Both the position numbers and the translations under genes were made by a program. A stretch of DNA of 60,705 nucleotides from an uncultured Bacillales bacterium. Lineage in GTDB: Bacteria > Bacillota_I > Bacilli_A > RFN20 > CAG-288. Of this stretch, positions 212-42,610 are shown in pieces. The stretch spans positions 1 through 60,705 of the forward strand of contig CALBLI010000031.1 in NCBI GenBank assembly GCA_937896065.1, given 5' to 3'. The notes under the pieces were generated by a model. That model saw only the letters and a program-made list of their open reading frames with translations, searched no databases and was not told the DNA's origin. Each line of letters opens with the position of its first letter. Position 1 is the stretch's first letter.

Positions 212-3200
212 TTATTCGGCTTCTCTTCCTGCCTTATCATCCATTGTGTGTAATGGTAACAAATACTGCACTTCAGTATTACCACAATGCTTATAAATTA
301 CAGCCAATTCATCAGTTGCATCTTTACTTGCATATTCAACCCCCCGATAAATTGACTCAACACCTGTGTAGCCATGTGTACCATAACTATCCAATAATCC
401 AATACGGTTTCCATATAAAATACTTTTTGTATAATTACCATAAGTAAATAAACTAACATACTTATATACCATAAATCTATTACGCACATATAGGTTATTA
501 AGATTTTGATTTTGTTGAGTATCAATAAAGTATTGTTTCCAAATCTTTAATGGATGAGATGCACCCATTGTATTGTCCGTTGCAGACGCCGAATTAGTAT
601 ATTCATGAGCCGTACCTTTGTTTGCAAGACCAAATGCACCTGATGATAAAAAGTTGAATGCACCAATAATATCAATATATTTTGTATGAGTTGTCTTAGT
701 ACCATCAGCAGCTTCTGTTTCCCATGTATCAGTTAAGGCATCTTTATTACTATAGAAAGGACTAATACCAATAACTGAAGGAGCCATAACATCGTGTTGT
801 ACCACAGTATCTGTAACTGTACCACTATCATCAGTTACACTTACTGATATATCACCACTTTGTCTACAAGCAACAAATCCTAACCAATCAACACATGAAT
901 CTGAATTTATACGTGTTTTTGCACTATCTGCTCCAGTGTTAGGATTTACTTTAGAAGGTAAATAATAATTACGAAGCAAGAATGGAGAAGTGTCCCACAA
1001 ACCATTATTAAACTTTGTTTTATCAGCATTACCATAGCCATCATTATTAATAAGATCATGTTCTTGTTCATATGATGCAACTTTATTTAAATATGCTGCA
1101 TATAAGATTTCACCTTTTGAAACAAGTTTTTCTATTTCTTCTTTTCCTTCTGATGTAGTAGTATCCAAAGTAGACATGTCTATATTTCTTAATTCTTTGT
1201 TATAGAACATTGCTAAAGAATCAAAATATGTATCACCAAACGTTATTGGCATATTAGTTCCATGCCAGCCACCAGTTGAGGAACTCTGATCATAAAATCT
1301 TGTATAGTATGTAACTGGGAAATAAGCAGTATGTTTAGCAAGCATAATGGCTCTCTCATTTTCAGGGATATAATAGAAACGAGTTTGACCTTCTGTTATT
1401 GAAGAAGTATCAACTTCTGTATCTGGCCCATCAGCAAAACTTTCTATATCTTCATATTTGATACCATAAGTTGAAGTCTCAACACCTGTTGTTTCGCTTA
1501 CAGTATTATTCATATAGACGTTTCTTCCAATATACAGCTTATTTTCAACATATTGTCCATTAATTGTACCATCAGTGTTATCAGTTACCATTTGACCAGT
1601 CTTTGGATCACATGTATATTGAGTTACACCTGCTACAGTTGAAGCGTCTTTTAAGTAGACAGTTACAATAGGAGATAAACCACCAGCATGTTCAATTTTG
1701 AAATTTTGTTGTTCTTTAGTTAAATATGGAGTCACATATTTAAATCTAGTTTCATATAAAAACGAATATAGACGCAAGACAGCATTACTTAGTCTATTTG
1801 ATATCTTCATTGTTATTTGATTCCAAATAGGAGTAGATTCATTAGTATCTCTAATCAAAAATGGAATCAATGTTTTAATAGTTACACCTATACCTGGTTT
1901 TAAATCATCTAAAATCTCTTTACCATCCTCATCAAGTGATACTTCAGCATAATTGATAGCTAATGTATTACCAGCCCAAGCAGTACCATTTGTAAGATTA
2001 GCAAATTTTCTTGAATAAGTTGTACCAGCTGCTGGATACATGTAACTTCTTAACTTATCATTAGTGAAAAACTTATCACTTGTTGCATTTTGCATGTAAT
2101 TACTTGCACTTCCTAAGAAAAGAAGTTTAACATTTCTACAAGTTATATCAGCTTCTGTACTCATAGAATCATAACCGGCTTGCAAGATAAATTTATTACG
2201 GTAAATTTCATATAATGTAGCATCATCAAACTTATATTGATCATTATTATTGAAATAATATGGAACACCCATGTTATCAACAGCATTTGAATCAACAGTA
2301 GTAATATAATCAGATAAATTGTTTCCTTTTTGAGTAAAGATACCATTAGAAGAATCGTTACCTCTAATAATGAAGAAATTTCTACCTGAAATAGTAATTA
2401 ATTCTTTAGCTTTATCTCCAATAGTTGCATTAAGTCCAGTAAGACCACTATTATTGAAAATGAATTCATCATATAAAGCACCTACACTTGAATCACTTAT
2501 GTAATCAACTAGTGCATAAGTTTTAGTTGTACTAAGACTTTTCGTCGATATATCAGCAGACATATCATCTATAAGAACAACATAACTATGTCTTCTTATG
2601 TTATGTAATAATTCAACATTTGTTGTAGAAAGTTCACCATTTACACTCTTAATAAATAATTGAGCAAATTGAGGATGAGCTTCATAGAAAGGATCATTTT
2701 GGATAGAAGCTGTTGCATTTGTCCCAATCAACTTAAATCCATTAGTATCTTCTTCAACCATCTTTGGAGTTCCAGAATAGAAAGACATCATTGACTTATC
2801 ACTTAATCCAGTAGTGTTAACTTCAGTTGAATTCAAAAGGGAATAGAATGAATTTTCTTTATAATAGATATAGTTTTTATGATATCTTAGAATATCTGTT
2901 GCAAGACCAATGTAATTAACGTAAGATTTTATCTCCTTCGTTTTATCAAAGTCATCAGCAATGCCCGCAAAATAAATAAAGTTATCACTAAACGTTAAGG
3001 AACCATCACTGCACTTATATGCTAAATCATATCCACCATTTTCAACTGTGAATGGATAGAAATAAATATCTTCCAAAACAGCTTTGTCTTCATTATAATT
3101 ATTAGACTTCAAATACAGATTTAAATTGACAACCGAAATTAAACGTTTCTTATTATTTTCATCTTTAAGCACTTCATATAACTTATCGTTGTCGTTAGAA

Positions 3201-6200
3201 TTGTTTTGTAGAGAGTAATACAAATCTACAAGGCTCTTAATATTCTCATTAGAAGGGGTATTATAACTATCTATATTAAGATATATCAATCCCATGTCAT
3301 CTTCAGCTTCTACACTACTCATAGTCCAAGCAGGTTTAGCAAATAAGAATTTATTCGATGCAGCATCAATATTATCAAAAGGCATGAGTCTATTTATATT
3401 AGCTTGTGCTTCATCTGAAGTATCATAACTAATGGTCCCATTAGCGGCATCAACCTGAAGCTTTAATACTCCACTCAAAGCTTCAATATATTCATCAACA
3501 GTTCCTAAATAAGTATTTCTAAAGGTTGAGATATCAAAAGCACTTGTTCCATCATATTTGTATGGAGCTTTTATAACATTTGATTTGAATTCTTCTTGTA
3601 AATCACTTTCAAGTGAAGAAGTATCAAGAAGCAATTGTTTCATATTCACATTGACATAATAATGTGGAGTCTCACCATTATTGGTGTTAACAGCATTTAC
3701 ACGGTTACTATTAAAGAAGTAATCATTATATGTCTTTTCATCTTGCGAGCCATAAATTTTTCCATTAAATGATATTGAAGCTGAAGCATCTAATTGGAAA
3801 TAATAAACGATACTAGAACCAAGACTATTATTTATATAGTATGCAAAATGTTTAACCTCATCTAAACCATATTTGGTTTTTTGATTTAAAATATTTGAAA
3901 TAGCATCATTACCAGCAGTGAGCCTTCCAATGTAAGCAAGTTCAAGATTTTTAGAATTTATTGTAGTATTTTCATTTATGGAATCTTTAGCAAAATCTTG
4001 TCTTAAAACAGCAACTACTCTTCCTTCAGAGCCATCATAAACTTTCGTAGCTAAAACTTTAGCAGTATTAGTGTAATATGCGCCTAAACTATCACCAGTA
4101 GTATCACTTACTTTAGCATTATAAATGATTGTATCTTCACCTTTGTATAACTTGATAGATACATTATATTCATCACCTTCAACAATTTTTTTATTATCAG
4201 TATCATATTTCCAACCTTTTCGTTTATAACTAAAGAATTCAGTTGGACCTTCACTTGCATTATCTGATAAATAAATATATGAAGTGTATCTAATGGTCTG
4301 AAGTGTTGAGTTAGATGTCTGCAAACACTGATATATCTCACCAGCCTTTTTGACATCATTATTCATACCATCTTTTAAATTAGTAGATAAGAAATGATCA
4401 ACATCACCTAAATAGAATCCGATGAGTTTATAATCATCATCACTTGTGAAACAATAAACAAATTGATTTTTATTTCTTTGTTCAGTGATAGTATCATTTG
4501 ATAAAGTATCTAAGTATTCACCAGATGTTCCTAAGAATATTCTTTGAAGAGTTGAATTCTCATCAATAATAGCTAGAGGATCATCTTCAGCATATTCTTT
4601 TAGATTCTCATTATAAATAAAGTTAATAGTTGATCCACGATATTTATCAACAGTATCTTTACCAAGATTTAAGAAGTCATTATATGTTCCTAAAAATAGA
4701 TATTCAATAGACTTTGTTTGATAATTTTTAGTAGCAATAAAGCGTGAATATTTGGTATTTGTTGTATGCACTGTTCCATCACTATTGAAAACAAAATCAA
4801 CGCACTTACTCTTATAATTTTCTCTTAACTTATCAGCTTTTTCTCCGCCTGCAATAAGTGTTTTTATAAAATAAGCAGCACCTGTTACACCATTAGCCTC
4901 ATCATCTCCATTATAAAGATAATCTAAGGTTATACTATCTGAGCTATCAGTAAAACTCTTGTAACATGTTACAAAATTAGAATCTGAGTAACTCTCTTCA
5001 GGATCACCATTATCTGTAAAATAATTGGGATCTTCACCATATAACTTGCTTACAATGTTCTTAGAAGTTTCTAAATAGATAGCCGTCAAATTCTTAACAT
5101 TAGCAATATTTTTTGAATCAACAAAAATATTTTCTTTAGCAGTATGATTTATAGTGGCCTCACCTTGTTTTTCTTCACCAACTTTGTATGGCATAGCAAG
5201 ATAAAACTTATCAATCTTATAATATGGTCTATCTTTATATAATTTACTACCATCATCTTCTACTGGTAAATCTTCACTATCATCAATCTTGAGCTTATTT
5301 ATTCTTTGACGTGAATAGTAAGTTCTAGCAAAACTGATAGGCGTACCTATATACATAAAGTATGGATATAGAGTCGATTTTTGATTTTCTTGTTCTGAAA
5401 TTAAACCACTACCATAATCATCAGCAGTACTCGAAAATGCCATGATACTATTTTTAATTTTCAAAATATCAGTAGCATAAGTAAGAGCTTCATTCAAACC
5501 TTTATAGATAGTAATAGTTCTTGAAGTATTATTTTTAGAATAATAAAGTCGTCTAACATATTCCTCCCATGGAGTATATGAGCTACCTTTTACTTCATTT
5601 AAATATGACAAAACAGTATATGAAGAAGCAGTTGCAAATGAACGATGATTCATATTAGCATGTGTTCTTCCATCAAATCTCATATGGCTAGAATATCCAG
5701 CAAATGGATCAGCTGCTTTATCATATTCATAGGTCATACTATCAATATTTAAAGCCATAATAATTTCATTTTTAATGACAGCTAAATCCTGAACATCAAC
5801 AAAAGTATCAAAATAACTTAATGAATCTGCATAATAAACGATTATTTTATCACTGCCTGCTACACCATTTGCACCGACAGTTGTTCTAGTATTTAAAAAT
5901 GAATTCTCATCAATGAAATTAATTGAATTTGGAATATAATATTTAGCTGCATAAGTTACATTTTCAAAAGCACCATTATTAGCAGAATCATTGACAATAG
6001 CAGTTACTCTTCTTATTTTGATTCCATCATAATAGAAATAAGGAATATAAACTTCATTAGCTAATAGATTTGTTGTCGTATATTCTCTATTCATAAAGCC
6101 AGCAAAGCCGATCTCATTGACACTATCTAATGTGGTTGATTCATCAACTGTTGACATACCATTATCGACAATATGAGCTTTAAGTGGGTTCCCATCTTCA

Positions 6201-9200
6201 TCTTTCAATGTGAAATTGAATAATTCACTATATGAAGATGCTGTAGAGTTACCAGCTAAATAAGTTGTAAATGCATAGAAGGTAGTAGGATCATCATAGT
6301 TACCAGTAATAGAAATTGGTGAATAATCTCCATCAAGATAATAAGAACCATTTATGACATAAACTGTTCTCAAATATGGCTTATAGGTTTTGTCATCCAT
6401 TTTGTAAGTATATTTCGTGGATAAATCCCTATTAAAATTAACATTCACAGCATCAGCTTCAGTTGAACCTGGTTGGCGTTTTTTAAAGCTTCCACCATCA
6501 CTAATTGTTTTGACAATATTTGGAAGTTTAATCTTGGTTCCACGATCTCCACCATTGTTTTCAAGATTACCATAAACATCATAAACAGTATTACCTGTTA
6601 AAGTCCAACTATCATTGTTATCTAAAACAATTTGATAATAACCATAATTAGTAGAAGCATTCAATTTATATTCACGCACTAAAAAGTCAGATAAAGTATT
6701 ATCTGTTAACTTGACAATAGCATCCCATAAATTTTTCATACCGGTTTTATCAGCATCATTTTTATAGAAATCTAAAGCAATATTACTTATATTGATAACT
6801 TCAGTGCTTAAAGGATCAATACCTGAATTAGGATCAGTTGATACATTTCCATTAATGACTGGTTTCCAAACTTTATTATCACCATAGGTTGTATTTCCAC
6901 CAGGAATTGGATCTTTAGGAGCTTCAATTGAATCACCTAAAGCAACATTTTCTCTTTTAGCAACTTTAGTAGTTGAAATAGTTGTTCCCGTATTTGTATT
7001 CTTTTCTTGAGTCACATATGTGAATTGAATAGTGAATTCTCTAGGTGTATAAACTGCAACAAAAGAAGAATCAGCTGTCTTCAAATATTCAGGAATTTCT
7101 TCACCTGGTTTATAAATAACAAGAGTTTGTTCATCTTTCCAACCAACGAATTCATATAATCTTAAATACAATTTGTAATTGTTATTTATATTACCTGCAG
7201 TCAAATTAAAATCAGTAAATGATTTGACAGTATAACTATCTTTATATTTGACATTGCTTGTTGATTCTACTGTGTCAACTGTAATAGCATTGTTTTCGTA
7301 TTTTAAGATATTATATTTATAAGTGATTGTATATTCATCACCAACATATTGAGCAATAGCGATAACATCGCATGTTTGATTGAATGATATTTCATTCATA
7401 TCAGTAATAAGTGCATCAGCTGGTAAAGTATTATTTCGGTAATTGTCCAAATTAAATTTATCAGCTTTATAATATTTCCAGCCTGAAAATCTGAAACCTT
7501 GTTTGGTTGGATTTCCCATTTTTGAATATGCTGCGTTATAGCTTACATTGATAACATATGGATTAGAATTATTATCTGGTAAGTAAGTAATAATGTAATT
7601 TAAAGCTTTCACTTGAGCATATAAATAAATGCCGTCAGTGTTATTAGTAGATGAATCAATATCAACAGCATTAGGATTAGTTAAAATGGTATTGGTAGTA
7701 ATAACATTTCCATAATTATCTCTCCAATAATCAAATCGATAGCCTAATTCTTTAAGTTTATTATCAACATATGTTTTAAAGACAGTACCATATCCGTTTG
7801 ATGAAATATTATATGCTTCACCAAAATAGGTTACGACATATTTTTCACTCTTATCATCATTGTATCCAAGAAGTGATTGTTGATCATTTGTTCTAATAAA
7901 TAGACGATATTTTAAAGGTTCAAATTCAGCATATAATACATAATCAACAACACCATTTTTAGCAGTATTGGCATTTGAAATGTTCCATTTTGTTAAAGCA
8001 ATACCATCTGCTTTACCAGTATCAGTCAAATAATATTTTTTAGTGCTTCCATCAGCATCTTTATAATAGTAATAATATGATTTGAATTTCTTACCTTCTC
8101 TAATAGGAGGTAAAGCTAAATTAAAATCAGCATTACCAACTACACTTTGAACAGTTGGTAGTCCTTCATTATCTGCAATATAAGAAATATTGAAGAAATC
8201 ATTGATTGTTGATCTTATATAGATAATAACAACGTTATTATCAGGATTTTCTTTATCATAAACTTTATTTTTATCAGCTTCTTCTTTTTCATGAACAACT
8301 GGATCATAAATAAATGCATCGCCTTCTTTAACAACTGATCCGTTTGAATATGTAAAAACTGGTATCAAAGCTTGTGACATATTAAGACCAGCATTAGTAT
8401 AAATCTCATCTTTAGTAAGCCAAGTTCTAGAATTACCAACAGATGTTAGAAGTTCACCATAAGCATTTCTATTGGGTAAAGTGAAATCAGTATTCTTACC
8501 ATCCTTAACATATCTGAAAGTAACTTTGTATTCTTTTCTGACCCATTTAGCATATAAAACGATGTCTCTTTCATATGGATAACAATTAGCATTGACTGTA
8601 GGAACACTAGGATTTGGTAAGATATCATCTTTAAAATTAGTGCCTGCTTGACAATCGCTTGTAGTATACCAGCCATCAAAATAATAACCAGTACGATTAG
8701 GAGCAGTTTCTAAATCAACATTTTGATTATAAATGACATTAGATATCTTATTTAACATACCTTCAACTTTGAAAGCATAGGTAATCTTATAATTATTGTT
8801 TTTATAAACAGGATAGATATCCAAAGAATAAACTAATTCTTCATCAACTGTAGTCGATACAAATTGATCGATGAGAGAGTCACTTGTAATCAAATTTTTA
8901 CCATCTAATGACCAACCTAAAAAAGTATATCCAGTAAGTGATGGTGGATATACTATTAAACCAGTTTGATTTGTTGCTTGAGGAATTTTACCACCATATG
9001 TTCCACTAACTGTTGTAAGTATTTCAATAGTTTCATCAACATTTTGTTTGCCTAATTCATTATTATGATATTTGATAGTAACATTTATTGCTTCATATCT
9101 AGCTGAGTAGACAATTGAAGTAGAACCTAAAAATTTATTCCCTTTTTCAAGTTTGACACCATCTGATGAATACCAACCTGTAAATATGTAGCCACTCTTC

Positions 9201-28664: not shown

Positions 28665-28681
28665 ATATTATTATTTTAACA

Positions 28682-28718: not shown

Positions 28719-28725
28719 TTTTATA

Positions 28726-31700: not shown

Positions 31701-34692
31701 GATCAATTTTTTTATCAGTTGCATCATATGAAGAAGTTGAAAGAGCAGTCAAATATCTTGCTTTAAATGTTCCATTGTTGATGTCTTGATAGGTTGTCGA
31801 AGTAGCCGTTTTAATTTCAGCTCTCAAAGTGACATTATAAGCATTACCTCTGATATCAGCTGTCAAGGTATGATTTCCATAAGCAAATAAATATTCATGA
31901 CCATTAATAGTCTTATCATTTTTAATATATAAATCACTTCTATCAACATTAGGATCAGTTGGAATTTGTTCGAGCCAACCTAAGAATGTGAAATAATTAT
32001 TGGCAGTAGCACTTTTAGTGTTTGTTGCTTTAAATGAGAAACCGTTATAAACATTTGTAGTTGTATCACCATCAGTCTTTTCATAATAGGCAGAATAGAA
32101 AGGATGATATGCTACATATGAAATAGGATCTAATTTAGTGCCATTTGTGACATTGAAATTGACAGTATATTTCTTTGGAACATATGTCAAAACAAAATTA
32201 GTATCTGCTATAACATTTTCAATATTTGATTCACCATCGATAATATGACCATCTTCATCACATGGGAACCACTTTTGATCAAAAGCAGCAAAATAATCAG
32301 CTGTAAAGAAATCGTCATTTCCAGTTGTGAATCTTAAGCCACCTTCAGCCATCATCTTTGTTCTATCGATAATAGGAGCAGAAGCAGCTGTGCCATCAGC
32401 TACAAGTCTAGTGGAACCGATTTGTTGAATTGTTCCAGTTGTTGAATTGATATAATAGAAATTGACACGATGCGAATTATTTTGATTGACAGTTAGTATT
32501 GCATCAATTGGATCTGGATCATAATAATGTTCAGGATCAGTTGCTTTAAAATAGGCAGTAGCTATTTGACTACCAACTGTTGATCTGACATTATTTACAA
32601 CAGCTGAAACAGTAGCAAGAGGTTTACCATCTTTCGTTGGAATAGCACTTGTTATAGGATTGATGGTGACTTCTTCACCAGAAACAAAACCTTGAACAAC
32701 ATCTGGGAAAACTCTATCCTTATCAATCACGATTCTTAATTTATTGATTGTCAAATAAGAATACATGTTTTCAATCTCTTCATGAGTAGAAGGAACAGTA
32801 AAGATAGCTTCAACTAAATAATTGCCTGGTTCAACAGGGAGAGTATTAAAATGAGTATCATCCACTTGATCAGCAGGTAATGTTACATCATATGTATATA
32901 AAGTTGATGTTGAAACATTACTCTTATCAGTTGTTGTTTTATAAATATAATAAACATATTTGACTGTGACATCAGCTGGAACATTGCTTACCTCAGGATA
33001 TGGTTTATAAGAAGCGTTGTAATCAAATGATGTGGCTGAAAAAACCAAATCATCATCATAACTACTTTCAACAATAGTTAAAAAAGCTGACATATCACTT
33101 GCATATTTAGTACCGACTTTATCAGTAAATTTGGCAATAACTTTATAAACACCTATTTCACTTGGTGCTTCATCAAGCTCACTTACAGTATAATCAGTTT
33201 TGCCTTCTTCTTTTGTTAATTTATAATAAGTATAATCAATATTGATATCGCTAGGTAAATTGCCTTCAACAGCTAAAGTTTTAGCCTTTCCATCGTAAAC
33301 AAAGTTTTTAGAAATAAAACTCATAACTGATGTATTATTTCTAATTACATGTCCATATATAGTAATATCACTTGCTACAGTACCAAGAGAAGTGACTCTT
33401 GAGCTTTCAGAATAATCAGGTCTTAAATACCAACCTTCAAAATAATAGCCATCATTAACAACAGGTGCAACAAGATTGTATCTATTAGAACTATCAGGCA
33501 CTTCGCCATAAGTATATTCAGTGATATTATCATTGCTAATAAAATTAGATAATGAATATGTTACTTTATATTTTCTTGGTGTGAAAGTAAAATAAATATC
33601 AACATTTTGAGTTACATTGAGCAACTTATTTTTATTTTCATCAGTAAGCGAAACAATATAACCTTCAGCAATAGTCAATTTCTGAGCACGACTGATAAGT
33701 TCATCAGCAGTAAGTGGACAATTATCACCACCAGAAACCGTAATAGAATCTAATATTTGAGTCTGATTGCGATAGAAAGAAATCTTAACACCATTGGTGA
33801 TTCTAACTCTCATATTGACAGTTATTGATGATGGATCTTCATAATTTTTATCTTGAGATGTAAAATAAATTTTAACAATATTGATACCTTCTTCTGTTCT
33901 CTCATTATTAGAATAGAAAGCTTTGAGTCTGGAATCAAGACCAGCAACTATTTCAAGACGGTGAGTTACAACAGGTGAATAATCATAATTGTAATATGTT
34001 TCACCACCTTCAATTGAAGTTGAGTCAGCATTGAATCTTAAATTGGCTTTAATAGCAGCCATATCAAAAGTTTTCTTTTTGATGGTGATTGTCGCTTGAG
34101 CTGTATAATGTGATACACCGGTATTTTTATTATATACTCTAGCAGTTACTGTATATATACCAGCATCAACTTTACCATTATTTTCATATTTTACAGCAAA
34201 ACCATCAGGAATAACGCTCTCTTCATTATCAATATAAATAGAGTGCTCATTTCCATCATATTCAAAAGTTTTTGCATTGAAAGTGATTAGTGAATACCAA
34301 TTGATGGTTCCATCATTTGGAGCTTTAATAATGAGTTTAGCAGTTTTATCTTTGTAAAGAGTTCCATCACTACCTTTAAATTTAGCAGTAACAACATTTG
34401 TACCAATGGCAGTTCTAGTATTGTTTTCATAAGTAACTGTGACTCCAGCTGGGAGGGAACTTTCGTCACATTTTAATACTTTTTCTTGTCCATCATAAAT
34501 GTATGTTGCATCATTAAAAGCAACTCCGACATCTTTATAAACAGATTCAGGTATATTTTCATTTTTCTTATCTTCATTGCTTGTTGCATCTTGTGACTTA
34601 TTAGCAGTTGGTTCACAACTTGTAACAAGTGGCATAATCATAGAAGTTAAGACGGCTAAAGAGAATAATTTAGATTTTTTGTTGTTTCTCAT
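28726..34692 (-). CDS. Giant surface lipoprotein, 1988 aa: lipobox, MBG-like modules, Flg_new-type repeats, C-terminal Big_2-like Ig domain
   Basis: GGAGGA (34706-34701) lies 8 nt upstream of the ATG at 34692 (MRNNKKSKLFSLAVLTSMIMPLVTSC), so the track start at 34710 is rejected. MBG-like YIYDGQEKVL...GVTVTYENN and FEYDGNEHSI. Repeat signatures YYFEGWY, FTFLGWL, YKFLGWT, YKFLGWY, YTFGGWF, YILNGWL. The C-terminus ITSSKPSVCLVNGTKLTFNAIGECQLTVKVNN is Big_2-like. Confidence 0.9.
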   Translation of the reverse strand: MRNNKKSKLFSLAVLTSMIMPLVTSCEPTANKSQDATSNEDKKNENIPESVYKDVGVAFNDATYIYDGQEKVLKCDESSLPAGVTVTYENNTRTAIGTNVVTAKFKGSDGTLYKDKTAKLIIKAPNDGTINWYSLITFNAKTFEYDGNEHSIYIDNEESVIPDGFAVKYENNGKVDAGIYTVTARVYNKNTGVSHYTAQATITIKKKTFDMAAIKANLRFNADSTSIEGGETYYNYDYSPVVTHRLEIVAGLDSRLKAFYSNNERTEEGINIVKIYFTSQDKNYEDPSSITVNMRVRITNGVKISFYRNQTQILDSITVSGGDNCPLTADELISRAQKLTIAEGYIVSLTDENKNKLLNVTQNVDIYFTFTPRKYKVTYSLSNFISNDNITEYTYGEVPDSSNRYNLVAPVVNDGYYFEGWYLRPDYSESSRVTSLGTVASDITIYGHVIRNNTSVMSFISKNFVYDGKAKTLAVEGNLPSDINIDYTYYKLTKEEGKTDYTVSELDEAPSEIGVYKVIAKFTDKVGTKYASDMSAFLTIVESSYDDDLVFSATSFDYNASYKPYPEVSNVPADVTVKYVYYIYKTTTDKSNVSTSTLYTYDVTLPADQVDDTHFNTLPVEPGNYLVEAIFTVPSTHEEIENMYSYLTINKLRIVIDKDRVFPDVVQGFVSGEEVTINPITSAIPTKDGKPLATVSAVVNNVRSTVGSQIATAYFKATDPEHYYDPDPIDAILTVNQNNSHRVNFYYINSTTGTIQQIGSTRLVADGTAASAPIIDRTKMMAEGGLRFTTGNDDFFTADYFAAFDQKWFPCDEDGHIIDGESNIENVIADTNFVLTYVPKKYTVNFNVTNGTKLDPISYVAYHPFYSAYYEKTDGDTTTNVYNGFSFKATNTKSATANNYFTFLGWLEQIPTDPNVDRSDLYIKNDKTINGHEYLFAYGNHTLTADIRGNAYNVTLRAEIKTATSTTYQDINNGTFKARYLTALSTSSYDATDKKIDQAVTWGYDFADKTIENFSQYYKEDDSSLYSFIGYYDEFGNQLTKDSILNSPKDQKITLKFDVKKVTVSFLYGNGNDNITQTWNYNDTLGKTGTTQVTGTCYLPADPTRDGYKFLGWTYLKDQVLELSPKADGSNPDIRYDASGSGVLIVGYAGTTAKKISEILSEVNGVKFADRVELKAVWVKQAITVTYLTNNEASDPDKPTIKNSSTVLAWKSTKTVYYSDTFGSDAAPELEAPSYKFLGWYYGDTKITKDNVVNFTGANNNIILTAMWETVEYDITYILNNDSTESTITQTVRFDATYTIPDFTAPVGCTSYTVSLFDLTGAAITNFIISNKDADLAKTNNLVNKSFKKLGIHQSFVAVLSWTGEEVYLSFKEEDGVTTTKDSQGNNIADRKTNFKVAYGTLPTPVKKGYTFGGWFYGTTRITTETLVSTTDSLPPTIEVNGATYKNLILKAKWLANSYVINYSPNNGSNAQAVTVNFNDKVFLPKNYTKKGYILNGWLDDDGTVYREDFTYTFDTDINLRANWVAKTYKVSYYDVNGAFKTSKEVQFGQKFNEILATYPYEQFFPGKEYDVDGSDLPFSANAYAFDASVPQFVLDNGSIVDLNSYICNQDLDSGDEIRLTAYGKPKTFTITFDLNRSKDVDGLVEGDASDDVATIMSCTYGQPFTPLSAPTRKGFTFVSWQYKHVFNASEKLYGELAADESINFNSFNQITDLIATAQWKAISYRVTFNYYNSDKGNESQIYSYFDDNGNAKQDVYVGSKVQMPDGNSEYLPKHYKFLYWQNERDSTQKIYSDQEYVFSETQDLSFRAVYQEELDEEYQKLFVNLKFVNAAGTEIAHFDDVYCGKQLSGLPANSKFTYGSATLETDTAGMLVNPFTRFDSEGNDRYGVGKYITLTAAPVISDFTVTNKAEIEAKHTKGTTLDLAIVLQGSNVPSIADAISSGLLSITSSKPSVCLVNGTKLTFNAIGECQLTVKVNNITQVFNIVVG

Positions 34693-34723
34693 TATTAATT
34701 TCCTCCACAAATCATTTTATTTA

Positions 34724-37700
34724 TTAAGCATTTGGTCCAGTATTACCAGTAAGACAGTTAATAAATCCTTTCCTATCTTCCTTAAGTTCAGTATCTGAAC
34801 AGATATTCTTGAAATCATTATCACCATTTGTCTTCAATCTAAAACGAATTATCATCTCGTTTTGAATAGTTGCAGCACCATCTACCATATTAATTGGGAA
34901 TGAAGAATTTAAGAAGCCAAAATAGTTAGAATCTAATGAAATTTGATTATAATCACTAGTTGTACCATTAATTGTTATATCAAATGTTTCCACTCCGCTC
35001 AAGGTAGCTTTAGTTTTATATTTAATAAAAGTATGTATCGCTATTTTCTTCAAAGCAGAACTGATATTAACAGATGTCAAATTTTGATTATAAGCAAAAC
35101 AACCTTCACCAATATTTTCAACACTTGAAGAAAGTGAAACAGATTTAAGACCTGTTCTTGAGAAAGCATATTTACCGATAGTCTTTAAAGCTGATGAATG
35201 AGTAAATAATTCCAACTTACCAACACAATAGAAAGCATAATCTTTGACTTCAATAAGAGAAGTACCATCAAGGTTACGGATACTATTTCCATTAGCTTTC
35301 AAATCAGCAATAGGAGTTGTTGATCTATCACCGTTCTCAAATTTAGCAAGTGACATTGGTGTTGAGTATTTGCTTCCAAAAGTGATATGAGCCCAGTTTT
35401 CAATTGTGCTTTCATATTCAACTGAGGTTAGTTGATTTTGCCTGATAAAGTAACCACTTTTTGCAAGAAGTTCATCAGTTGCATATCTTTCAACGCCGAT
35501 ATAGTTTCCACCAGTAGCTGGACAATCTCTATCATCTGTAATCTTAAAGCAATCTTCTTCAAATTCATTAATATTAGCTGGAACAATTACTTTATTTAAG
35601 TAAGATAGGTTAATAAATGTGTACTTTTTGATGATGGATACTTTTGGCAATTGTAAAGTGGTACCTACACTATCAATCCAGGACATTTGAAGTGTTTGAA
35701 GATTATTCTTGTAGAAGCAGTTTTGATAGACTAAATACATTGGATTACTTGAAACATCGTTAAATTTAATATTATTCCATGAAGCAACTGTTCCAAGATA
35801 ATTGACCTTAGTAAGTAGTGGACAATCAATGTTTAATGCAGCTACGTTAGAACCATTCATAATAGCAAAGGCACCTTTTTCAAATTCAGTGATTGTATCA
35901 GGAATAGTGATAGCTTTAGCAAAGTCCTTTACTTTTTCAAGACCATTTTGATTGTTATATAAGAAGCTAGCACCAACTTTATTTATCTTGTAAATAGATT
36001 CAGAAGAATCACCCATCATAACATAGCTAGGTAACCAAATATTTCCATTTGTCTTATATAAGGCATTAGTGCTTGTAGCAATATTGTTACCATTTAAACC
36101 AGTAAGTGTAGCTGTTTTAGTTTGAGCATCATCTGCAAATTCAAAGAATTGAGTATTAATCTTATTTTTAAGATAAACAAGACCAACAGAGAAAACAGAA
36201 CCATGTTCAGAATAGCTGTATGCGTCTTCTTCAGAATCAAGGTTTGTATAAGCGGCAGCAAAGGCTTTTGATGTATAACGACCATTTGCATAATCTGCAA
36301 AACAATAAATATCTTTTTGACTTCCTTGTTCTTTAGCTTTTTGTGATTTGATGACGAGTGCAAATTGAGTAGGATCAAGTCCTAACTTTTGCAATAACTT
36401 GATTTGCAAACCAGCATCATTGTCACTTCCTAATAAAACTTTATAGAATGGCGTACCATTTGTGATAGCAAAATCATATACACCAGCTGAATCTTGAATA
36501 TATTCACTTGTGATGTTATTGATATTGAACTTAATCTTATATGATTTGTCAACAAAGACCGCTCTGAATCTGATTGAATATGTATCATCAGCAAGAGTTG
36601 TCGTACCTTTATCATCTATTGAGATGTAATTGAAGTTATCAAGAGTGACAGAACCTGAATTAATAATAGTTTCAGTTTCGACTTCTTCAAAGGTTTGACC
36701 AGTTTTCTTTAATTTGATAAGTCTCCAACCAGCAAAAGTTTTACCTTCACTAGCTTCGATTGTAGGTAATGTGAATTTTTGTGAATAACTTGCTTCAGCT
36801 GTACTGAATAGTTCAGTATTATTGTAATAAGAAATTTCAACTTTCTTTGGAACATATGTGATTGAAGCTGAAACATTTGAAATACTGCTATCATTTGCTA
36901 AAATTTGATCAGCAAAGTCTTCTAAATCAACAGTTTTAGCAACTTTTCTTGCAGTTACAAGTTTATTACCATCATTAAAATCATAGATACTATCATCTAC
37001 TTCCATAGTAACAGTCCATTTACCAGTATTGTAGCCATTCTTTTCTTTTATTTCAGGTAATGATATTTCAACCAATTTCTTACTTGAACTATCAAAATAT
37101 TTAAATTTCTTATTTCCAGTTGTTTGATCAACATAAATCTGATATCCGAATTTGTTAGTTTTATAGAATTCAACAACTTCAGCATCAACAATTTCCTCAG
37201 GTTTGTTAGTTAAAACACCAACTCTTTGTCCATCACTATTTAAACCTGAGAAGGTGAAATTGACAGGACTCTTTTCATATTCAGCCAAAATATATACTTT
37301 AGTACCAACTGGTATTGTTTGAAGAACATAATTACTATCAACTTTCTTATAAATGCCATAATTATTGACAACTGTATCATTATTGACAGTATATTCAACA
37401 TAACCAGTTCCTGAACTGATATAGTATTTTTCACCCTTTTCATCAGTTCTGACCCATTTCTTAAAACTATAACCATCTAAGACAGGATCATTTGGTAATA
37501 ACAATTTAGCACCATATGTTTGATTCATATTGGTAGTTGAATTTGTTATTTGTGTTTCTTCAATGGTAAGATCAGTGAATGTTTTAGTAATTTCAGCACC
37601 TGTATTAGGATCAATAACTTTTCTGGTGCCAGTTTGATTTGTCTTACTTACTTTAGTTTTTGACTTAGTAGTAATAACTGAATCAATAACTTTAGCTCTG

Positions 37701-40700
37701 TATTCAGCAGTTAAAGACATTGGAGTTGACCAACTGATGTCTTTAGCTTCATCTGGATTGTAATCACCTGGTTTAGCTTTATAACCCAATTCAAAGGCAG
37801 ATTTGCCATTAGGAATAGTAAATAAAGCCGTCGTACCAAATGTTAAAGAAGTTAAATCATATCCAGCTCTATTGGGTAAGAAATTCTTCTGGGTAGTATT
37901 ATCAATACCTAAAGCAATTAATCTACCAGCATTTACGCTATCTTCAACATAGATATTAGAATCCCAAGTAGAAATTCCATTATCGTTATATGTCTTAATA
38001 AATGGAGAAGCAGCTTTCATGATTCTTGTAGTTTCATTTCCAAGCCCATCTTGAACAATGTATTGGATATTGATTTCATATTCATTATCAACGAAGACAG
38101 CATATAGTGCAAATAAGCCTTCACCTGTAGTATCAAAGTCTTTTTGCTCAACAGGTGTAACTGATGTGACAAAATCTTCACCATTTTGATTATAATAATA
38201 GCTTTTCTCAGATTTTAAAGTGGTAGCATTTCTAGTCTTATTGTAATAATAAAGTTGAGCTTTATTAACACCAGCAGTAGCTTTCACTTGATCATATTTA
38301 GATTTGGTTACCCACCCAACAAATGTTTTACCATTTGAAGCAGGAGTGGCAGTTGGCAATGTGTATGAACCACCTATATTATTTTTATAAATGCCAGTTA
38401 AATCAGTTAATTCAGCACCACCGAAGTTGTAGAAGACGACATTGACTGATTTAGCTTTAACCTTTAATTTAACAGTGATGTTTTTTGAAAATTCATAAAC
38501 AGAAGCACCAGAATAATTATTTCCTTCATATTCCCAAGCTTCAAATTCATAGCCTCTATATTTAGCAGTATTAGTTAATACAGGTGTTGGATAAGTAACA
38601 GCTTTTTTATATTCTACAGTTACTACACCACTATTATTAGTGCCAACACTTGGTCTATTATCTTGACCATTTAATAATTTACCTTCCTCATCAACAAATG
38701 TGATTGTATATGAAAGACTAAGATATTCAATAGCTATAGTGATATCGCCATTTTTATCTAGAAGTGAATTTAAAAGTTTAGGTGTAAGAATACTGGCTTG
38801 GGTCAAATTTGTTATTTGTTCCAAATTTACAGAAGTAACTGATAAATCATCATTTGGAACTACTTTTGTTAAAGCAGTTAAAGTATAGCCATCTCTATTT
38901 AATAAAGCAGCATCAGGGAAATTAATCAAACTATCGGTAGAAGTTGTAATTGTCGTATCAGCTGCTATTTTATTAGCAACAAAATTAGGATAAAGTCTAT
39001 TTGTTCCTACATTATCTTTCTCAGCTTTAATGAAAACAAATTTGATATTGTAGTTCTTAGCTTTAAGTCTTGCACTTATCTGTTGGTTATTAGTGTAATC
39101 AAAAATATCTTTTTCTAAATCAACTTTTTGTCCATTTGTATAATAGAAGCCTTCAAAATCATAGCCCATTGCATTTGCAGCAGCATTAACTGTATTTAAA
39201 AGATTATTCAAAGTTACGTTAGTTTTATCAGTAGTATCAATATTTGTTGCAGTATTAAGGAGCGAATTATATTTAACTACAAAGGTAGATGCACTCTCAA
39301 CCCAAATATAATCTGCTGCTTCTTTCTTCTTATATGTTACAGTAACACGATATTCTTGATATTCCCATTCAGCATATACAGCGTGATCAATAGATTGATA
39401 GACAGTTAAGGTTTCATTAACTTGAGTTTTAACACCATCTTTCATGATATACCAGTACTTAAAAACTCTTCCTTCTCTTGTAGGGTTGCTTTCAGGAAGA
39501 ATATATTTTTCACCAAAGGTATTAGTGATTTGAGCGTAGACATTTCCAGTACCAGCTCCACCATCACCAACTTCATCTTCACTAGTATAGAAGAAGACTG
39601 TAGGTGTCTTAGTTTCAAACTTAGCATATAAAACAATATCACGATAGTCTTTAGGGGCTAAAATATTTTTATAATATGTGCCATTACTAATAAGGCTAGA
39701 ATTGAAATTAGGATCTAAATACCAACCCAAGAATCTTGAATCTTGTAAGGTAGGGACTTTTAATTTATGTTCTTCATCATTATCATCAACAACTGTATAA
39801 GTAGTCTTATTCATGCTATTATCAGCTAATTCAGAAATAACATATTTAATATTATATGTATGTGGTTTTCTTACAACTACAACACGTATTTCATCACCAC
39901 TTACTGCTAGTAAATTGTTGGTTGCATCAGTACCTGTTTGAGTATCTGCATTATATGAACCATATAAATAATAATATGTATCATAGCCATAATATGCACT
40001 CTCATCTCCCCTAGTTGATGGAAGAGGTGATCTTTGTCCTTTTTCAACCGCATAACTAGCAATTGGGTTACCATTTAAATTGTTAGCGTCATAGAACAAA
40101 ACAGCAGTTGATTCATCGGTGATAACATATTGAATTTCACGATAATTTGGAACTTCAATATTTGGATCAGTGACTTTAAAATAAACTCTTGCCGTTTTTG
40201 TACCAGCAGTTGATGATTTCTCACCACTATAATAATCTACTTCAACGCCTTTAGGGAAACTATTTGAAGAAGCTATATCAAAATAAACTGAATATTCTTT
40301 ACCAGCTTGATATTTGAATGAAAAAGCTGGAGTTTGATTAGAGTGAGAATTACCATTATAGTCTTTCCACAATGTATTTTTATTTGCAATACCTTCGCTA
40401 ATAGCTGTATCAATTGCATCTTCGACATTCTTCTTATTGATAACTAATGTCGTTTTCATATCTACCAATTCTTCATAATTGGTTGATTCACTATTTAAAG
40501 TTGAGAATGTGACACTAACTTCATAAGTACCAGCATTTGTTGGTGCATCATTTGAAGTGCTACCATAAACACCATTTTCAACCTTCACATAAGATATGTG
40601 TGGTATAAATGGGAAATCATTATTTTGTTGATTAGTTCTGAGTGTCAAAACTCTGCCACTGATAGTAGAAACCTTAATATTCACTTCTTTTGGTAAACCA

Positions 40701-42538
40701 TCATATGTATAGGTAAATACATTTTTCTCTAAATCATATGCTGTACTTGCATCATCAGAAGTGGTAAACACTGCCTGAACATTTTCACCTTTAGTGTTTT
40801 GAATAGGAACAACACCAGCACTTCCGTCAGCAATAACAATACTATTATCAGCAGTCTTTTTACCTAAATTCTTTAATTTAGCTTTAACAATTGTAAAAAC
40901 TGCTTCTTGTGGTGCTTGTGCCATTTCTTTTTTGGTAGCATCAGTATATACATTTAAAGTTACATGATAAGTTCCAACATTTTTAGGTGATGAAGATTCA
41001 GTGATGCCATTAGCAGATTTATAAATGAGTTCATAAACATACTTTGGATCTTTATTATTGATTGTAATATCTTGTTGTTTGCCGTTATAAACAACTTGTT
41101 GATCAGCAATTGATGCTGATGCACCTATTTGTCTTGAATTGACAGTTAATACTAAATCACCGACAAGAGTTTTACTGGCAATAACACCATCAGTGCCAAC
41201 TGTTCCTGAATGATATTTAGCAGCATCAGCTGGTTTTGATGCATAATGTGGATCTGTTGTCACATCATAATTAGTCGTATAACTCCAACCAGTAAATTCA
41301 TAACCATCATTCATATTTGGAGTTGGTAAATTCAATTGTTCATCAAAAGTATAACGGATAGGACGTGAGCTATCGTCTTTAGAATTTGTGCCTTGGTAAA
41401 CAATTGTGTATTGTCTAGGAGTATAAGTGACGCTCAAGTTAATAGCTGTGTCTTGTTTTACAACCTCAGTAACTAATGATTCATCATATCCATTTTCAGT
41501 TGTATATGCACCCTTAGGAGCAGGGATATAAGTACCATCAGCTTTTTTAACGGCTAAAACAGGCAAATCATTTGGATCTAAAGTGCCACCAACAGGAAGA
41601 GAAATCTCATACCCAGTATAGTCTTTATCACTTGGATTACAAACAGTTCCATCTGGTCTTACAACAGGTACATTAGTTCCGTTGTAATAAGCAAAAACAT
41701 TAACTTTAACAACCTCAGCATTAGCCAAAATAGTAAGATTAGCAGTTAATGGTGCTGGATCTTTATAATTCAAATTCGTCGATTTAAAAGAAGCTGTAAC
41801 TTCCTGAGTACCAATAGTTGTTCTACCATTGTTTGTATAACTAACGACAACCTGGATATCTTCAGTAAGTCCTTCAACTGTAAGCTCATGCTTCTTGCCA
41901 TCATAGGCGTATTGTTTTGATTTGAAAACAACATTCGACATATCATAATCAGCTTTAGTGATATTCATGATTGTTGTTTTGCTATAAACTTCAACCTTAC
42001 TCACTTTATTTCGCATATAAACAGTTACTGGATATTGACCAACAGATATCGCTTTGTTGTTTGTATATCTTGAAACTTCATAGCCTTCGGGAATAGTATT
42101 TGGATCAACAGCAAGTGAATGTTCTTGTCCATCATAAACGAAATTAGTTTCATTGCCTTGGAAACGTAAATTATTCCAAATCTCATTTGCACCAGTAGAA
42201 TCAACAATACGCAATGTAGCTTCTTTCTTTTGGTAATTTGTTCCTTTATTGTCGCTAAAATAGGCAGTTATTGTATAGTCACCAGTATTAACTTGTGCAT
42301 TATTGTCTGAATATGTAACAGAAACCCCTTCTGGTAAATTTCCTGTAATTTCAAGCCCATGGACTTTGCCATCGTACAAAACAGTTTTATCTAAAAACTC
42401 AACATCTACAAACTTGGCTTCAGAGACTTCTTTTTGGCTATTCTCAGTGTTTGAAGAAGCACTTGTTGGTGTACAGCCAGTCACAGCTAACATTGAAGCA
42501 AGTACCGTAAGACTAAAGAGTTTATTTTTCTTTGACAT
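34724..42538 (-). CDS. Giant surface lipoprotein, 2604 aa: lipobox, MBG-like modules, Flg_new-type repeats, C-terminal BspA-type leucine-rich repeats
   Basis: GGGAGGA (42553-42547) lies 8 nt upstream of the ATG at 42538 (MSKKNKLFSLTVLASMLAVTGC), and only 2 nt from the track start at 42544. MBG-like VLYDGKVHGL, FVYDGQEHSL, YAYDGKKHEL. Repeat signatures YEFTGWS, SRFLGWY, KTFVGWV, KTFAGWR. The last ~470 aa carry LRR_5-like units (IPDTITEFEKGAFA, VKDYAFYCVGKLE, LKTIGKYAFSRTGLKSVSLSSSVENIGEGCFAYNQNLTSVNISSALKKIAIHTF). Confidence 0.9.
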   Translation of the reverse strand: MSKKNKLFSLTVLASMLAVTGCTPTSASSNTENSQKEVSEAKFVDVEFLDKTVLYDGKVHGLEITGNLPEGVSVTYSDNNAQVNTGDYTITAYFSDNKGTNYQKKEATLRIVDSTGANEIWNNLRFQGNETNFVYDGQEHSLAVDPNTIPEGYEVSRYTNNKAISVGQYPVTVYMRNKVSKVEVYSKTTIMNITKADYDMSNVVFKSKQYAYDGKKHELTVEGLTEDIQVVVSYTNNGRTTIGTQEVTASFKSTNLNYKDPAPLTANLTILANAEVVKVNVFAYYNGTNVPVVRPDGTVCNPSDKDYTGYEISLPVGGTLDPNDLPVLAVKKADGTYIPAPKGAYTTENGYDESLVTEVVKQDTAINLSVTYTPRQYTIVYQGTNSKDDSSRPIRYTFDEQLNLPTPNMNDGYEFTGWSYTTNYDVTTDPHYASKPADAAKYHSGTVGTDGVIASKTLVGDLVLTVNSRQIGASASIADQQVVYNGKQQDITINNKDPKYVYELIYKSANGITESSSPKNVGTYHVTLNVYTDATKKEMAQAPQEAVFTIVKAKLKNLGKKTADNSIVIADGSAGVVPIQNTKGENVQAVFTTSDDASTAYDLEKNVFTYTYDGLPKEVNIKVSTISGRVLTLRTNQQNNDFPFIPHISYVKVENGVYGSTSNDAPTNAGTYEVSVTFSTLNSESTNYEELVDMKTTLVINKKNVEDAIDTAISEGIANKNTLWKDYNGNSHSNQTPAFSFKYQAGKEYSVYFDIASSNSFPKGVEVDYYSGEKSSTAGTKTARVYFKVTDPNIEVPNYREIQYVITDESTAVLFYDANNLNGNPIASYAVEKGQRSPLPSTRGDESAYYGYDTYYYLYGSYNADTQTGTDATNNLLAVSGDEIRVVVVRKPHTYNIKYVISELADNSMNKTTYTVVDDNDEEHKLKVPTLQDSRFLGWYLDPNFNSSLISNGTYYKNILAPKDYRDIVLYAKFETKTPTVFFYTSEDEVGDGGAGTGNVYAQITNTFGEKYILPESNPTREGRVFKYWYIMKDGVKTQVNETLTVYQSIDHAVYAEWEYQEYRVTVTYKKKEAADYIWVESASTFVVKYNSLLNTATNIDTTDKTNVTLNNLLNTVNAAANAMGYDFEGFYYTNGQKVDLEKDIFDYTNNQQISARLKAKNYNIKFVFIKAEKDNVGTNRLYPNFVANKIAADTTITTSTDSLINFPDAALLNRDGYTLTALTKVVPNDDLSVTSVNLEQITNLTQASILTPKLLNSLLDKNGDITIAIEYLSLSYTITFVDEEGKLLNGQDNRPSVGTNNSGVVTVEYKKAVTYPTPVLTNTAKYRGYEFEAWEYEGNNYSGASVYEFSKNITVKLKVKAKSVNVVFYNFGGAELTDLTGIYKNNIGGSYTLPTATPASNGKTFVGWVTKSKYDQVKATAGVNKAQLYYYNKTRNATTLKSEKSYYYNQNGEDFVTSVTPVEQKDFDTTGEGLFALYAVFVDNEYEINIQYIVQDGLGNETTRIMKAASPFIKTYNDNGISTWDSNIYVEDSVNAGRLIALGIDNTTQKNFLPNRAGYDLTSLTFGTTALFTIPNGKSAFELGYKAKPGDYNPDEAKDISWSTPMSLTAEYRAKVIDSVITTKSKTKVSKTNQTGTRKVIDPNTGAEITKTFTDLTIEETQITNSTTNMNQTYGAKLLLPNDPVLDGYSFKKWVRTDEKGEKYYISSGTGYVEYTVNNDTVVNNYGIYKKVDSNYVLQTIPVGTKVYILAEYEKSPVNFTFSGLNSDGQRVGVLTNKPEEIVDAEVVEFYKTNKFGYQIYVDQTTGNKKFKYFDSSSKKLVEISLPEIKEKNGYNTGKWTVTMEVDDSIYDFNDGNKLVTARKVAKTVDLEDFADQILANDSSISNVSASITYVPKKVEISYYNNTELFSTAEASYSQKFTLPTIEASEGKTFAGWRLIKLKKTGQTFEEVETETIINSGSVTLDNFNYISIDDKGTTTLADDTYSIRFRAVFVDKSYKIKFNINNITSEYIQDSAGVYDFAITNGTPFYKVLLGSDNDAGLQIKLLQKLGLDPTQFALVIKSQKAKEQGSQKDIYCFADYANGRYTSKAFAAAYTNLDSEEDAYSYSEHGSVFSVGLVYLKNKINTQFFEFADDAQTKTATLTGLNGNNIATSTNALYKTNGNIWLPSYVMMGDSSESIYKINKVGASFLYNNQNGLEKVKDFAKAITIPDTITEFEKGAFAIMNGSNVAALNIDCPLLTKVNYLGTVASWNNIKFNDVSSNPMYLVYQNCFYKNNLQTLQMSWIDSVGTTLQLPKVSIIKKYTFINLSYLNKVIVPANINEFEEDCFKITDDRDCPATGGNYIGVERYATDELLAKSGYFIRQNQLTSVEYESTIENWAHITFGSKYSTPMSLAKFENGDRSTTPIADLKANGNSIRNLDGTSLIEVKDYAFYCVGKLELFTHSSALKTIGKYAFSRTGLKSVSLSSSVENIGEGCFAYNQNLTSVNISSALKKIAIHTFIKYKTKATLSGVETFDITINGTTSDYNQISLDSNYFGFLNSSFPINMVDGAATIQNEMIIRFRLKTNGDNDFKNICSDTELKEDRKGFINCLTGNTGPNA

Positions 42539-42581
42539 AGGCATAATCCTCCCTTATAAAAACTAGTAAGGTTATAAAATC

Positions 42582-42610
42582 ATTATATTTTAATACTATA
42601 TATATGAAAA
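42582..42610 (-). promoter_or_regulatory. Putative promoter of the two-gene giant-lipoprotein operon
   Basis: On the minus strand: TTTTCA (42610-42605), 17-nt spacer tatatatagtattaaaa, TATAAT (42587-42582), about 44 nt upstream of the ATG. The spacer starts with the same tatatat tract as the promoter at 12494-12522. Confidence 0.45.

Follow-up and report, generated by a model that had tools for sequence, protein, structure and literature searches.

Three paralogous giant lipobox proteins with differing C-terminal ends in a core chromosomal segment of an uncultured Bacilli lineage

The giant genes and their N-termini

The window analyzed here is the whole 60,705-nucleotide (nt) stretch of contig CALBLI010000031.1 from an uncultured low-GC lineage of the Bacilli, and all coordinates given below are window positions. 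It carries three giant genes, here called A, B and C, which encode paralogous proteins that begin with a lipobox signal peptide, continue through a common series of repeated modules and end in differing C-terminal regions. A preliminary description, made from the DNA letters alone, had reported open reading frames (ORFs) of 4079, 2604 and 1988 amino acids (aa) that together fill 26,022 nt, or 43% of the window. These sizes and their total were confirmed after a check of the start codons.

212 to 12451, minus strand: gene A, ORF for a giant lipobox protein of 4079 aa
34724 to 42538, minus strand: gene B, giant lipobox protein of 2604 aa, first of the B-C pair
28726 to 34692, minus strand: gene C, giant lipobox protein of 1988 aa

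The raw ORFs of B (34724 to 42544) and C (28726 to 34710), both on the minus strand, extend slightly beyond these limits. The start of C was placed at the ATG at 34692, about 10 nt downstream of a GGAGG site. For B, the ATG at 42538 was chosen because the upstream ATG is not kept in the orthologue of L008, a metagenome-assembled genome (MAG) labelled "Bacilli bacterium SUG353", where it reads ACG. The window is about 94% coding, with a uniform GC content of about 30%. TGA terminates 3 of its 30 genes, and the genetic code is therefore code 11. The chance occurrence of an ORF of 4079 codons in DNA of 30% GC is astronomically unlikely. Moreover, B and C are real coding sequences, since their ratios of nonsynonymous to synonymous polymorphism (pN/pS) between strains are as low as 0.07 to 0.09.

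The lipobox was judged by a rule in the style of PROSITE PS51257, which asks for Lys or Arg among the first 7 positions, an h-region free of charges, and a [LVI..][AGS]C motif whose Cys lies at position 22 to 26. A, B and C all conform to this rule, and each has three Lys or Arg residues among its first 7. They likewise agree with the broader lipoprotein pattern of a positive n-region and the motif [LVI][ASTVI][GAS]C, in which the Cys may lie anywhere from position 15 to 35.

12380 to 12451, minus strand: A signal peptide with lipobox ISSC, aa 1 to 24, MARKNKLIHIALLASLFTFSISS-C24 (Cys24)
42473 to 42538, minus strand: B signal peptide with lipobox VTGC, MSKKNKLFSLTVLASMLAVTG-C22
34615 to 34692, minus strand: C signal peptide with lipobox VTSC, MRNNKKSKLFSLAVLTSMIMPLVTS-C26

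The lipobox Cys is retained in every orthologue found, within SSC, SGC or TGC in the A orthologues and within MTGC (B) and ATSC (C) in L008. It is also nearly invariant (at least 90%) in a 20-sequence alignment of homologues of the N-terminal heads described below. We observed no LPxTG-type sortase motif in the C-terminal regions of A, B and C, and no hydrophobic segment besides the signal peptide in any of the three when scanned in 19-aa windows at a Kyte-Doolittle hydropathy of at least 1.6. Other large surface proteins inspected in this clade are lipoproteins as well. A, B and C are predicted to be lipidated at the lipobox Cys.

Heads, stalks and distal ends

Behind the lipobox, the three proteins follow a common order: a disordered linker, three MBG_3 modules, one Flg_new unit, two to three more MBG modules, a Flg_new stalk and a C terminus that differs between them. 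All-versus-all BLASTP gave a head similarity of 28.6% over 304 aa for A and B (E = 2e-21), 29.0% over 221 aa for A and C (E = 4e-17) and 25.9% over 857 aa for B and C (E = 7e-38). A homologue search with the B head retrieved 21 unnamed metagenomic proteins of 400 to 830 aa, 14 of which carry MBG_3 (PF18887); the majority of those inspected also begin with a lipobox. We built an MBG profile solely from 98 modules of these homologues, with the giants excluded. This profile matched A at aa 39-117, 129-203, 204-297, 477-576 and 582-668, B at aa 44-116, 124-199, 200-275, 475-556, 594-706 and 748-810, and C at aa 60-130, 139-213, 231-306, 459-549, 553-658 and 689-745, and the best E-values in the giants reached 1e-23. 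The consensus of the profile scores 27.4 bits with MBG_3, for which the gathering score is 25. The predicted MBG_3 assignment of the heads holds only via this homologue-derived profile.

AlphaFold2 modelled the B head as three beta-sandwiches with a predicted local distance difference test score (pLDDT) of 80 to 96, preceded by a disordered linker. Foldseek searches with this head returned tandem immunoglobulin (Ig)-like arrays of surface proteins, with the S-layer proteins Sap, EA1 and SbsB at the top and Rib, cadherins, the GhpA grappling hook and SGBP-B (6e9b) also among the matches. The SGBP-B match, at a template modelling (TM) score of about 0.12 to 0.14, reflects generic Ig-array similarity. 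Flg_new (PF09479) was found by Pfam at 71.3 bits in A, 62.4 bits in B and 59.4 bits in C, with a gathering threshold of 27. Iterative searches with a hidden Markov model built from the proteins themselves (self-HMM) resolved 9 Flg_new units between aa 404 and 1683 of A, 8 between aa 377 and 1963 of B and about 8 between aa 379 and 1810 of C. These units are not contiguous and leave unassigned segments between them. The number of detectable stalk modules is 13 to 14 per giant. Heads and stalks, the latter located by self-HMM and MBG profile, are as follows.

11561 to 12337, minus strand: A head, three MBG_3-type Ig-like modules (profile E 1e-18, 4e-10, 4e-9)
41720 to 42415, minus strand: B head, three MBG_3-type modules (profile E 7e-23, 6e-15, 1e-23)
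33793 to 34533, minus strand: C head, three MBG_3-type modules (profile E 1e-18, 3e-19, 7e-6)
7403 to 11242, minus strand: A stalk, 9 Flg_new-type units and 2 MBG modules (aa 477-668)
36656 to 41416, minus strand: B stalk, 8 Flg_new-type units and 3 MBG modules (40115 to 41122)
29281 to 33576, minus strand: C stalk, about 8 Flg_new-type units and 3 MBG modules (32476 to 33336)

The distal ends beyond the stalks differ.

34727 to 36097, minus strand: B distal end, BspA-type leucine-rich repeat (LRR) region, best Pfam stretch 35024 to 35260
28729 to 29280, minus strand: C distal end of about 180 aa, no family match
5888 to 6136, minus strand: weak LRR_5-like stretch of A, aa 2106-2188, 16.8 bits and thus below the gathering threshold of 27.7
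215 to 5764, minus strand: A distal region, aa 2230-4079, about 1,850 residues, lineage-restricted, no family match

LRR_5 (PF13306) scores 68.5 bits in B, with the gathering threshold at 27.7. It has no match in C and only a sub-threshold one in A. The only sequence relative of the B LRR region in the PDB is 4fs7 (E = 3.6e-5). For the distal end of C, neither Pfam (Big_2 included) at E of 1 or below nor the PDB gave a match. A word-indexed homologue search with the last 176 residues of C returned nothing, not even C itself, and is a weak null; indeed, with B-head and C-tip queries this search missed the window's own B and C though they are in the collection, so that its nulls are weak evidence.

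The distal region of A gave no Pfam match at E of 1 or below, no PDB sequence match and none in an NCBIfam-style search. With aa 1701-4079 of A as the query, a single protein other than A, of 4042 aa, was retrieved from 5.8 billion proteins by the word-indexed search. Exhaustive HMMER searching of 1.84 billion representative proteins with aa 2230-3300 yielded three matches, of 4042, 4338 and 4324 aa, all of which are syntenic A orthologues. Comparison of the region with itself by hhalign revealed no internal repeats. Its recurring x-Y/F-x-G-T/S motifs made a degenerate LRR_5 array a candidate, which was rejected after hhalign against the B LRR profile gave a probability of at most 4%. Among the four orthologues, most invariant positions of the region hold Tyr, Gly, Pro, Phe, Cys or Leu, and none of its 23 His residues is invariant. 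This conservation pattern, together with the lack of an invariant His, speaks for a role in structure or binding and against a His-dependent enzyme; the A distal region is thus probably a binding or structural module.

Much of the architecture given in the preliminary description was borne out by these analyses. The quoted lipobox signal peptides were correct and fit the PS51257-style rule in all three proteins, and the statement that a C-terminal wall or membrane anchor is lacking agrees with the missing LPxTG motif and second hydrophobic segment. The heads, proposed there as a paralogous family with one build plan, are significantly similar in all pairs (A-B, A-C and B-C) and are followed by the same order of MBG and Flg_new modules. 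Equally, each protein does have its own distal end, with LRR_5 in B, none in C and a lineage-restricted region in A, and hhalign detected no similarity between the ends of A and B. Other details had to be amended. The modules described as about three per protein are indeed MBG-like by the homologue profile, but number 5 to 6. The repeats of the stalk exceed the Pfam threshold for Flg_new in all three proteins, but are interspersed with other segments instead of forming one contiguous run. Pfam mapping of the domain names suggested at that stage located Flg_new in all three proteins and LRR_5 in B only; it recovered neither MBG in a direct scan nor Big_2 at the end of C.

Chromosomal setting, divergence and expression signals

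On the minus strand, B and C are followed by genes for a Sel1-repeat protein, thiamin pyrophosphokinase and an S4-like protein, then by recF, gyrB and gyrA, a gene for a glycosyltransferase-like protein, and serS. Gene A adjoins genes for an RluB-like pseudouridine synthase, HPr and DUF1538/P-II. No integrase or transposase is encoded in the window, and its single tRNA gene (Lys-CTT, 48488 to 48563) lies 6 kb off and adjoins none of A, B and C. Nine metagenome contigs bear the serS of the window, and six of these also contain the locus, with an identity above 99.5%.

We sought relatives in one genome per GTDB species. The best one was L008 (SUG353), which has a B orthologue of 2673 aa with a C orthologue directly downstream; this pair is bordered, in divergent orientation, by the GHMP-kinase, 640-aa lipoprotein and phosphoketolase genes that are also its neighbours in the window. 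The B/C duplication is evidently older than the split from the SUG353 lineage. A orthologues of 4042, 4338 and 4324 aa occupy the same position in three further lineages, and synteny of the giants was seen in L007, L008, L016 and L017. More distant homologues of the heads occur in MAGs labelled Bacillales, Izemoplasmatales, Eubacteriales and Christensenellaceae. Since the giants are found at the same positions among the same housekeeping genes, they are vertically inherited and do not form an island.

The site between the DUF1538/P-II and HPr genes is variable between related species, and the window has neither of the inserts seen there. In L016, an extra giant of 3547 aa (1 to 6320, minus strand) carries a lipobox, MBG, Flg_new and LRR_5. 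In L007 (3253 to 6150, plus strand) and L017 (3662 to 6547, plus strand), a Big_2 lipoprotein of about 961 aa and a protein of about 300 aa are encoded between DUF1538 and HPr. Directly downstream of its A orthologue, L017 furthermore has a block resembling a mobile element (23228 to 32975). It encodes a phage-type integrase, a DDE transposase and a MobL relaxase, along with helix-turn-helix (HTH) regulators and a DNA methylase that is accompanied by an HpaII-type restriction enzyme; nothing similar occurs in the window.

The giants are 48% (A), 41% (B) and 52% (C, N-terminal part) identical to their orthologues, and the corresponding values for neighbouring genes are 87% for phosphoketolase (XFP), 87% for DUF1538 and 78% for RluB. 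Along A, identity is about 60% at the N terminus, 60 to 68% in the Flg_new stalk and 16 to 35% beyond aa 2600, with 16 to 30% at the tip. Within the species cluster, alleles are 4079 to 4080 aa long for A, 2602 to 2604 aa for B and 1986 to 1988 aa for C. The reference length was found in 18 of 20 full-length alleles, with deviating lengths of 4080, 2602 and 1986 aa (1 to 2 aa off). Full-length alleles differ at up to 1.8 to 3.6% of residues, in mosaic blocks. No DNA tandem repeats were detected in A, B or C by Tandem Repeats Finder (TRF).

Selection was measured as pN/pS for B, C and their neighbours against strain L014, at 95.0% DNA identity.

Giant genes: B 0.09; C 0.07
Neighbouring genes: recF 0.04; phosphoketolase 0.04; GHMP kinase 0.07; thiamin pyrophosphokinase 0.15

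The highest value in any 200-aa window, 0.28, was observed at the LRR tip of B. Gene-wide positive selection on B and C was rejected on these ratios, and both genes evolve under purifying selection, in which the constraint is somewhat relaxed, most of all distally. The faster divergence between species, which affects the distal ends most, is explained by relaxed constraint as well as by diversifying selection.

The preliminary description had called the system diversifying. This term is unsupported because pN/pS is low in B and C and lies within the range of the neighbours (0.04 to 0.15), allele lengths are fixed and tandem repeats are absent. Its statement that the genes are not in an obvious island fared better, given the uniform GC, the lack of mobility genes and the synteny in related lineages. 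The same is true of its view of the proteins as lineage-specific and unnamed in databases, as the A distal region has three orthologues only and the family bears no database name. The synteny comparison that it proposed gave a divided answer: a site close by differs in copy number from species to species and divergence is greatest in the distal ends, but allele lengths are fixed within the species.

Candidate expression signals precede A and B.

12494 to 12522, minus strand: A promoter, TTGACA-17-TATAAT, sequence match to the perfect sigma-70 consensus
42582 to 42615, minus strand: promoter-like sites of B, TTGATT/TTTTCA-17-TAAAAT/TATAAT, in a block conserved in L008 and L014

The A promoter is the sole perfect consensus match in the window, where 0.16 would be expected. 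The three A orthologues all have both hexamers unchanged in their upstream DNA, although the flanking and spacer DNA has diverged. An AGGAGG site lies 8 nt ahead of the ATG of A. The conservation and perfect consensus of the promoter, together with this strong ribosome-binding site (RBS), suggest high expression of A; the protein is thus probably abundant. A GGGAGG site precedes B. Because C begins 31 nt past the stop codon of B, the two genes are probably co-transcribed, and B-C is probably one operon.

Several other features of the window deserve mention. A fourth lipoprotein gene (43789 to 45705, plus strand), divergent from B, encodes 638 aa with a probable start at MKTKNSKK, the lipobox ALSSC and a Ser/Thr-rich linker, and neither Pfam nor NCBIfam has a family for it. 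Of the genes in this region it evolves fastest, with 91.5% aa identity and indels relative to a strain of 95% average nucleotide identity (ANI); phosphoketolase is about 99% identical to that of the same strain, with 7 nonsynonymous differences in 803 codons. The SUG353 orthologue of the 638-aa lipoprotein is about 34% identical and also has a lipobox. The most AT-rich part of the window (50000 to 55039, GC 23 to 25%) holds a 353-aa ORF without a family and a 1048-aa SNF2/SNF2_assoc helicase. The core of this helicase matches DpdE, ZorD and DrmD, which are models of defence systems. The likeness is probably of a generic SNF2 kind, and defence genes that could partner the helicase were not seen.

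The recF-gyrB-gyrA cluster (21132 to 27051) lacks dnaA-dnaN, gene orientation flips at 42.6 to 42.9 kb (42545 to 42906), and the cumulative GC skew has its minimum at about 44 to 46 kb. A replication origin at this strand switch was considered and is not supported, as matches to the DnaA box were not enriched (20 found versus 23 expected). GyrB (23777 to 25969, minus strand) is unusually long at 730 aa, with its ATPase domain starting at about residue 106 and extra residues between domains, and has the same length in all contigs of the same species. The ORFs at 59570 to 60262 and 60314 to 60700, both on the minus strand, encode 230 and 128 aa and have no NCBIfam or PADLOC match.

Probable fibrillar-adhesin-type surface proteins and alternative readings

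We consider it probable that the paralogous and vertically inherited proteins A, B and C belong to the fibrillar-adhesin type of surface protein, with a lipid anchor at the N terminus; they would be exposed at the surface, extended in shape and adhesive. After predicted export by the Sec pathway, Lgt would place diacylglycerol on the lipobox Cys and signal peptidase II would cut before it, so that the lipid keeps the N terminus in the membrane. A disordered polar linker of 15 to 28 residues would come next, followed by three MBG_3 Ig-like modules and then by alternating Flg_new and beta modules as a semi-rigid stalk. With about 20 domains, this stalk may be tens of nm long and would present, at a distance from the cell, a C-terminal module particular to each protein, namely, the BspA-type LRR of B, the small domain of C or the lineage-restricted region of about 1,850 residues of A. 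The BspA-type LRR class binds host matrix proteins and other cells. B and C, an old tandem duplicate, would be expressed as an operon, and A has its own promoter.

Among the closest known systems are the fibrillar adhesins of Firmicutes and Actinobacteria, a class defined by Monzon, Bateman and co-workers, which are likewise very long surface proteins with a rod of repeat domains, an anchor at the surface and a terminal part of a distinct kind (PMC9210967). MBG and Flg_new are listed among their stalk domains (PMC9210967). Like A, B and C, these adhesins evolve fast and are mostly annotated as hypothetical. Size, stalk and anchor are all found in A, B and C if the lipobox is taken as the anchor, and a recognised candidate for an adhesive domain at the distal end is found in B only (LRR_5). 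In contrast to the classical forms, which have a C-terminal LPxTG anchor and an N-terminal tip, A, B and C are reversed, with an N-terminal lipobox and a C-terminal tip.

B further shares its LRR_5 end with BspA-like LRR proteins such as Tannerella forsythia BspA, Treponema LrrA and Bacteroides 4fs7, but differs from them in that its LRR tops a stalk of about 2,100 residues, and A and C are without significant LRR_5. Export of T. forsythia BspA uses the type IX system and a C-terminal domain. Among the shorter head homologues, P0001 to P0007 combine a lipobox and MBG_3 modules with LRR_5. Mollicute surface lipoproteins such as Mycoplasma hominis Lmp and the Vlp/Vsp proteins are likewise attached by lipid only and have long, repetitive, adhesive ectodomains, and near-identical tandem repeats in their DNA make them variable in size and phase. 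A, B and C resemble these families in their lipid-only anchor, as predicted from the lipobox, and in their long repetitive ectodomain; they differ in having no DNA repeats, fixed lengths and code 11.

Some observations weigh against the fibrillar-adhesin interpretation. The neighbours of the giants are housekeeping genes and give no hint of function. In a direct Pfam scan of the heads, MBG_3 (PF18887) reached only 9.8 bits (E = 1.1) in A and was not found in B or C. Finally, AlphaFold2 left aa 1900-2900 of A unmodelled (mean pLDDT of 38 from a 4-sequence alignment); only about aa 2520-2690, with alternating strands and helices, reached a pLDDT of 60 to 80, and Foldseek with this model was uninformative.

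Alternatively, the C-terminal modules could bind glycans or particles for feeding instead of colonisation. Bacteroides SusE/SusF and SGBP-B have the same topology, with an N-terminal lipidated Cys, tandem Ig-like spacers and a C-terminal binding domain, the lipoprotein SGBP-B (6e9b) was among the top Foldseek matches of the B head, and the window encodes sugar metabolism (phosphoketolase, 1-phosphofructokinase and HPr). However, the Bacteroides proteins are 5 to 10 times shorter, sit on a diderm outer membrane and belong to polysaccharide-utilisation loci, none of which is found here. No transporter, carbohydrate-active enzyme (CAZyme) or regulator is adjacent, the flanks being recF-gyrBA, serS and the rluB-like gene; no carbohydrate-binding module was detected in A, B or C, and the Foldseek match is of the generic Ig-array kind noted above. 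We thus regard a role in nutrient or polymer capture as unlikely. That the giants form an abundant structural coat, an S-layer- or glycocalyx-like shield or spacer against phage or host factors, for example, on a wall-poor cell, seems quite unlikely to us. The S-layer proteins at the top of the Foldseek matches, the expression of A suggested by its conserved perfect promoter and strong RBS, and the lipoprotein nature of the other large surface proteins inspected in the clade would all suit such a coat. Nevertheless, no self-assembly or S-layer homology (SLH)-type domain was detected, the S-layer likeness lies in generic Ig-like tandem domains with low TM scores, and three differing distal ends, including a BspA-type LRR, better fit ligand binding.

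The A distal part, which is very large, lineage-restricted and fast-evolving, might be an enzymatic or toxin effector that a stalk delivers in contact-dependent antagonism or predation, a role that others have suggested for certain giant proteins of bacteria (bioRxiv 10.1101/2023.11.21.568195). For A it is very unlikely, since A matches no toxin, peptidase or hydrolase family at E of 1 or below, has no invariant His in a region whose conservation is mostly aromatic, Gly and Pro, and is not followed by a conserved small immunity-like gene. Horizontal acquisition as a mobile adhesin island might be suggested by the element with integrase, restriction-modification, MobL and transposase genes downstream of the A orthologue in L017, but nothing of the kind is present in the window. 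Uniform GC, the lack of mobility genes and of a flanking tRNA in the window, and orthologues in the same positions with the same housekeeping flanks in four related lineages effectively refute this reading.

The fibrillar-adhesin interpretation combines familiar domain families and a known, predicted kind of surface protein with one unfamiliar part, the A distal region, whose apparent relatives are only in four sister species. We tentatively propose, as a possibility, that aa 2230-4079 of A may form a distal surface module of new fold, confined to one small Bacilli clade and driven by a conserved promoter of consensus strength, perhaps for a clade-specific interaction with a host, particle or partner cell that would lie outside the reach of the known adhesive domain families.

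These findings do not overturn current understanding, and their value lies in annotation and as a lead. A probably gut-associated member of the Bacilli spends 43% of a 60-kb core chromosomal segment on three predicted surface proteins that databases do not name. The A distal region is a sizeable piece of conserved "dark" sequence, with three orthologue clusters among 1.84 billion representatives. A fibrillar-adhesin-like build would be possible with a polarity opposite to that of the sortase-anchored classics, and such proteins may escape domain-based adhesin predictors that search for an anchor at the C terminus.

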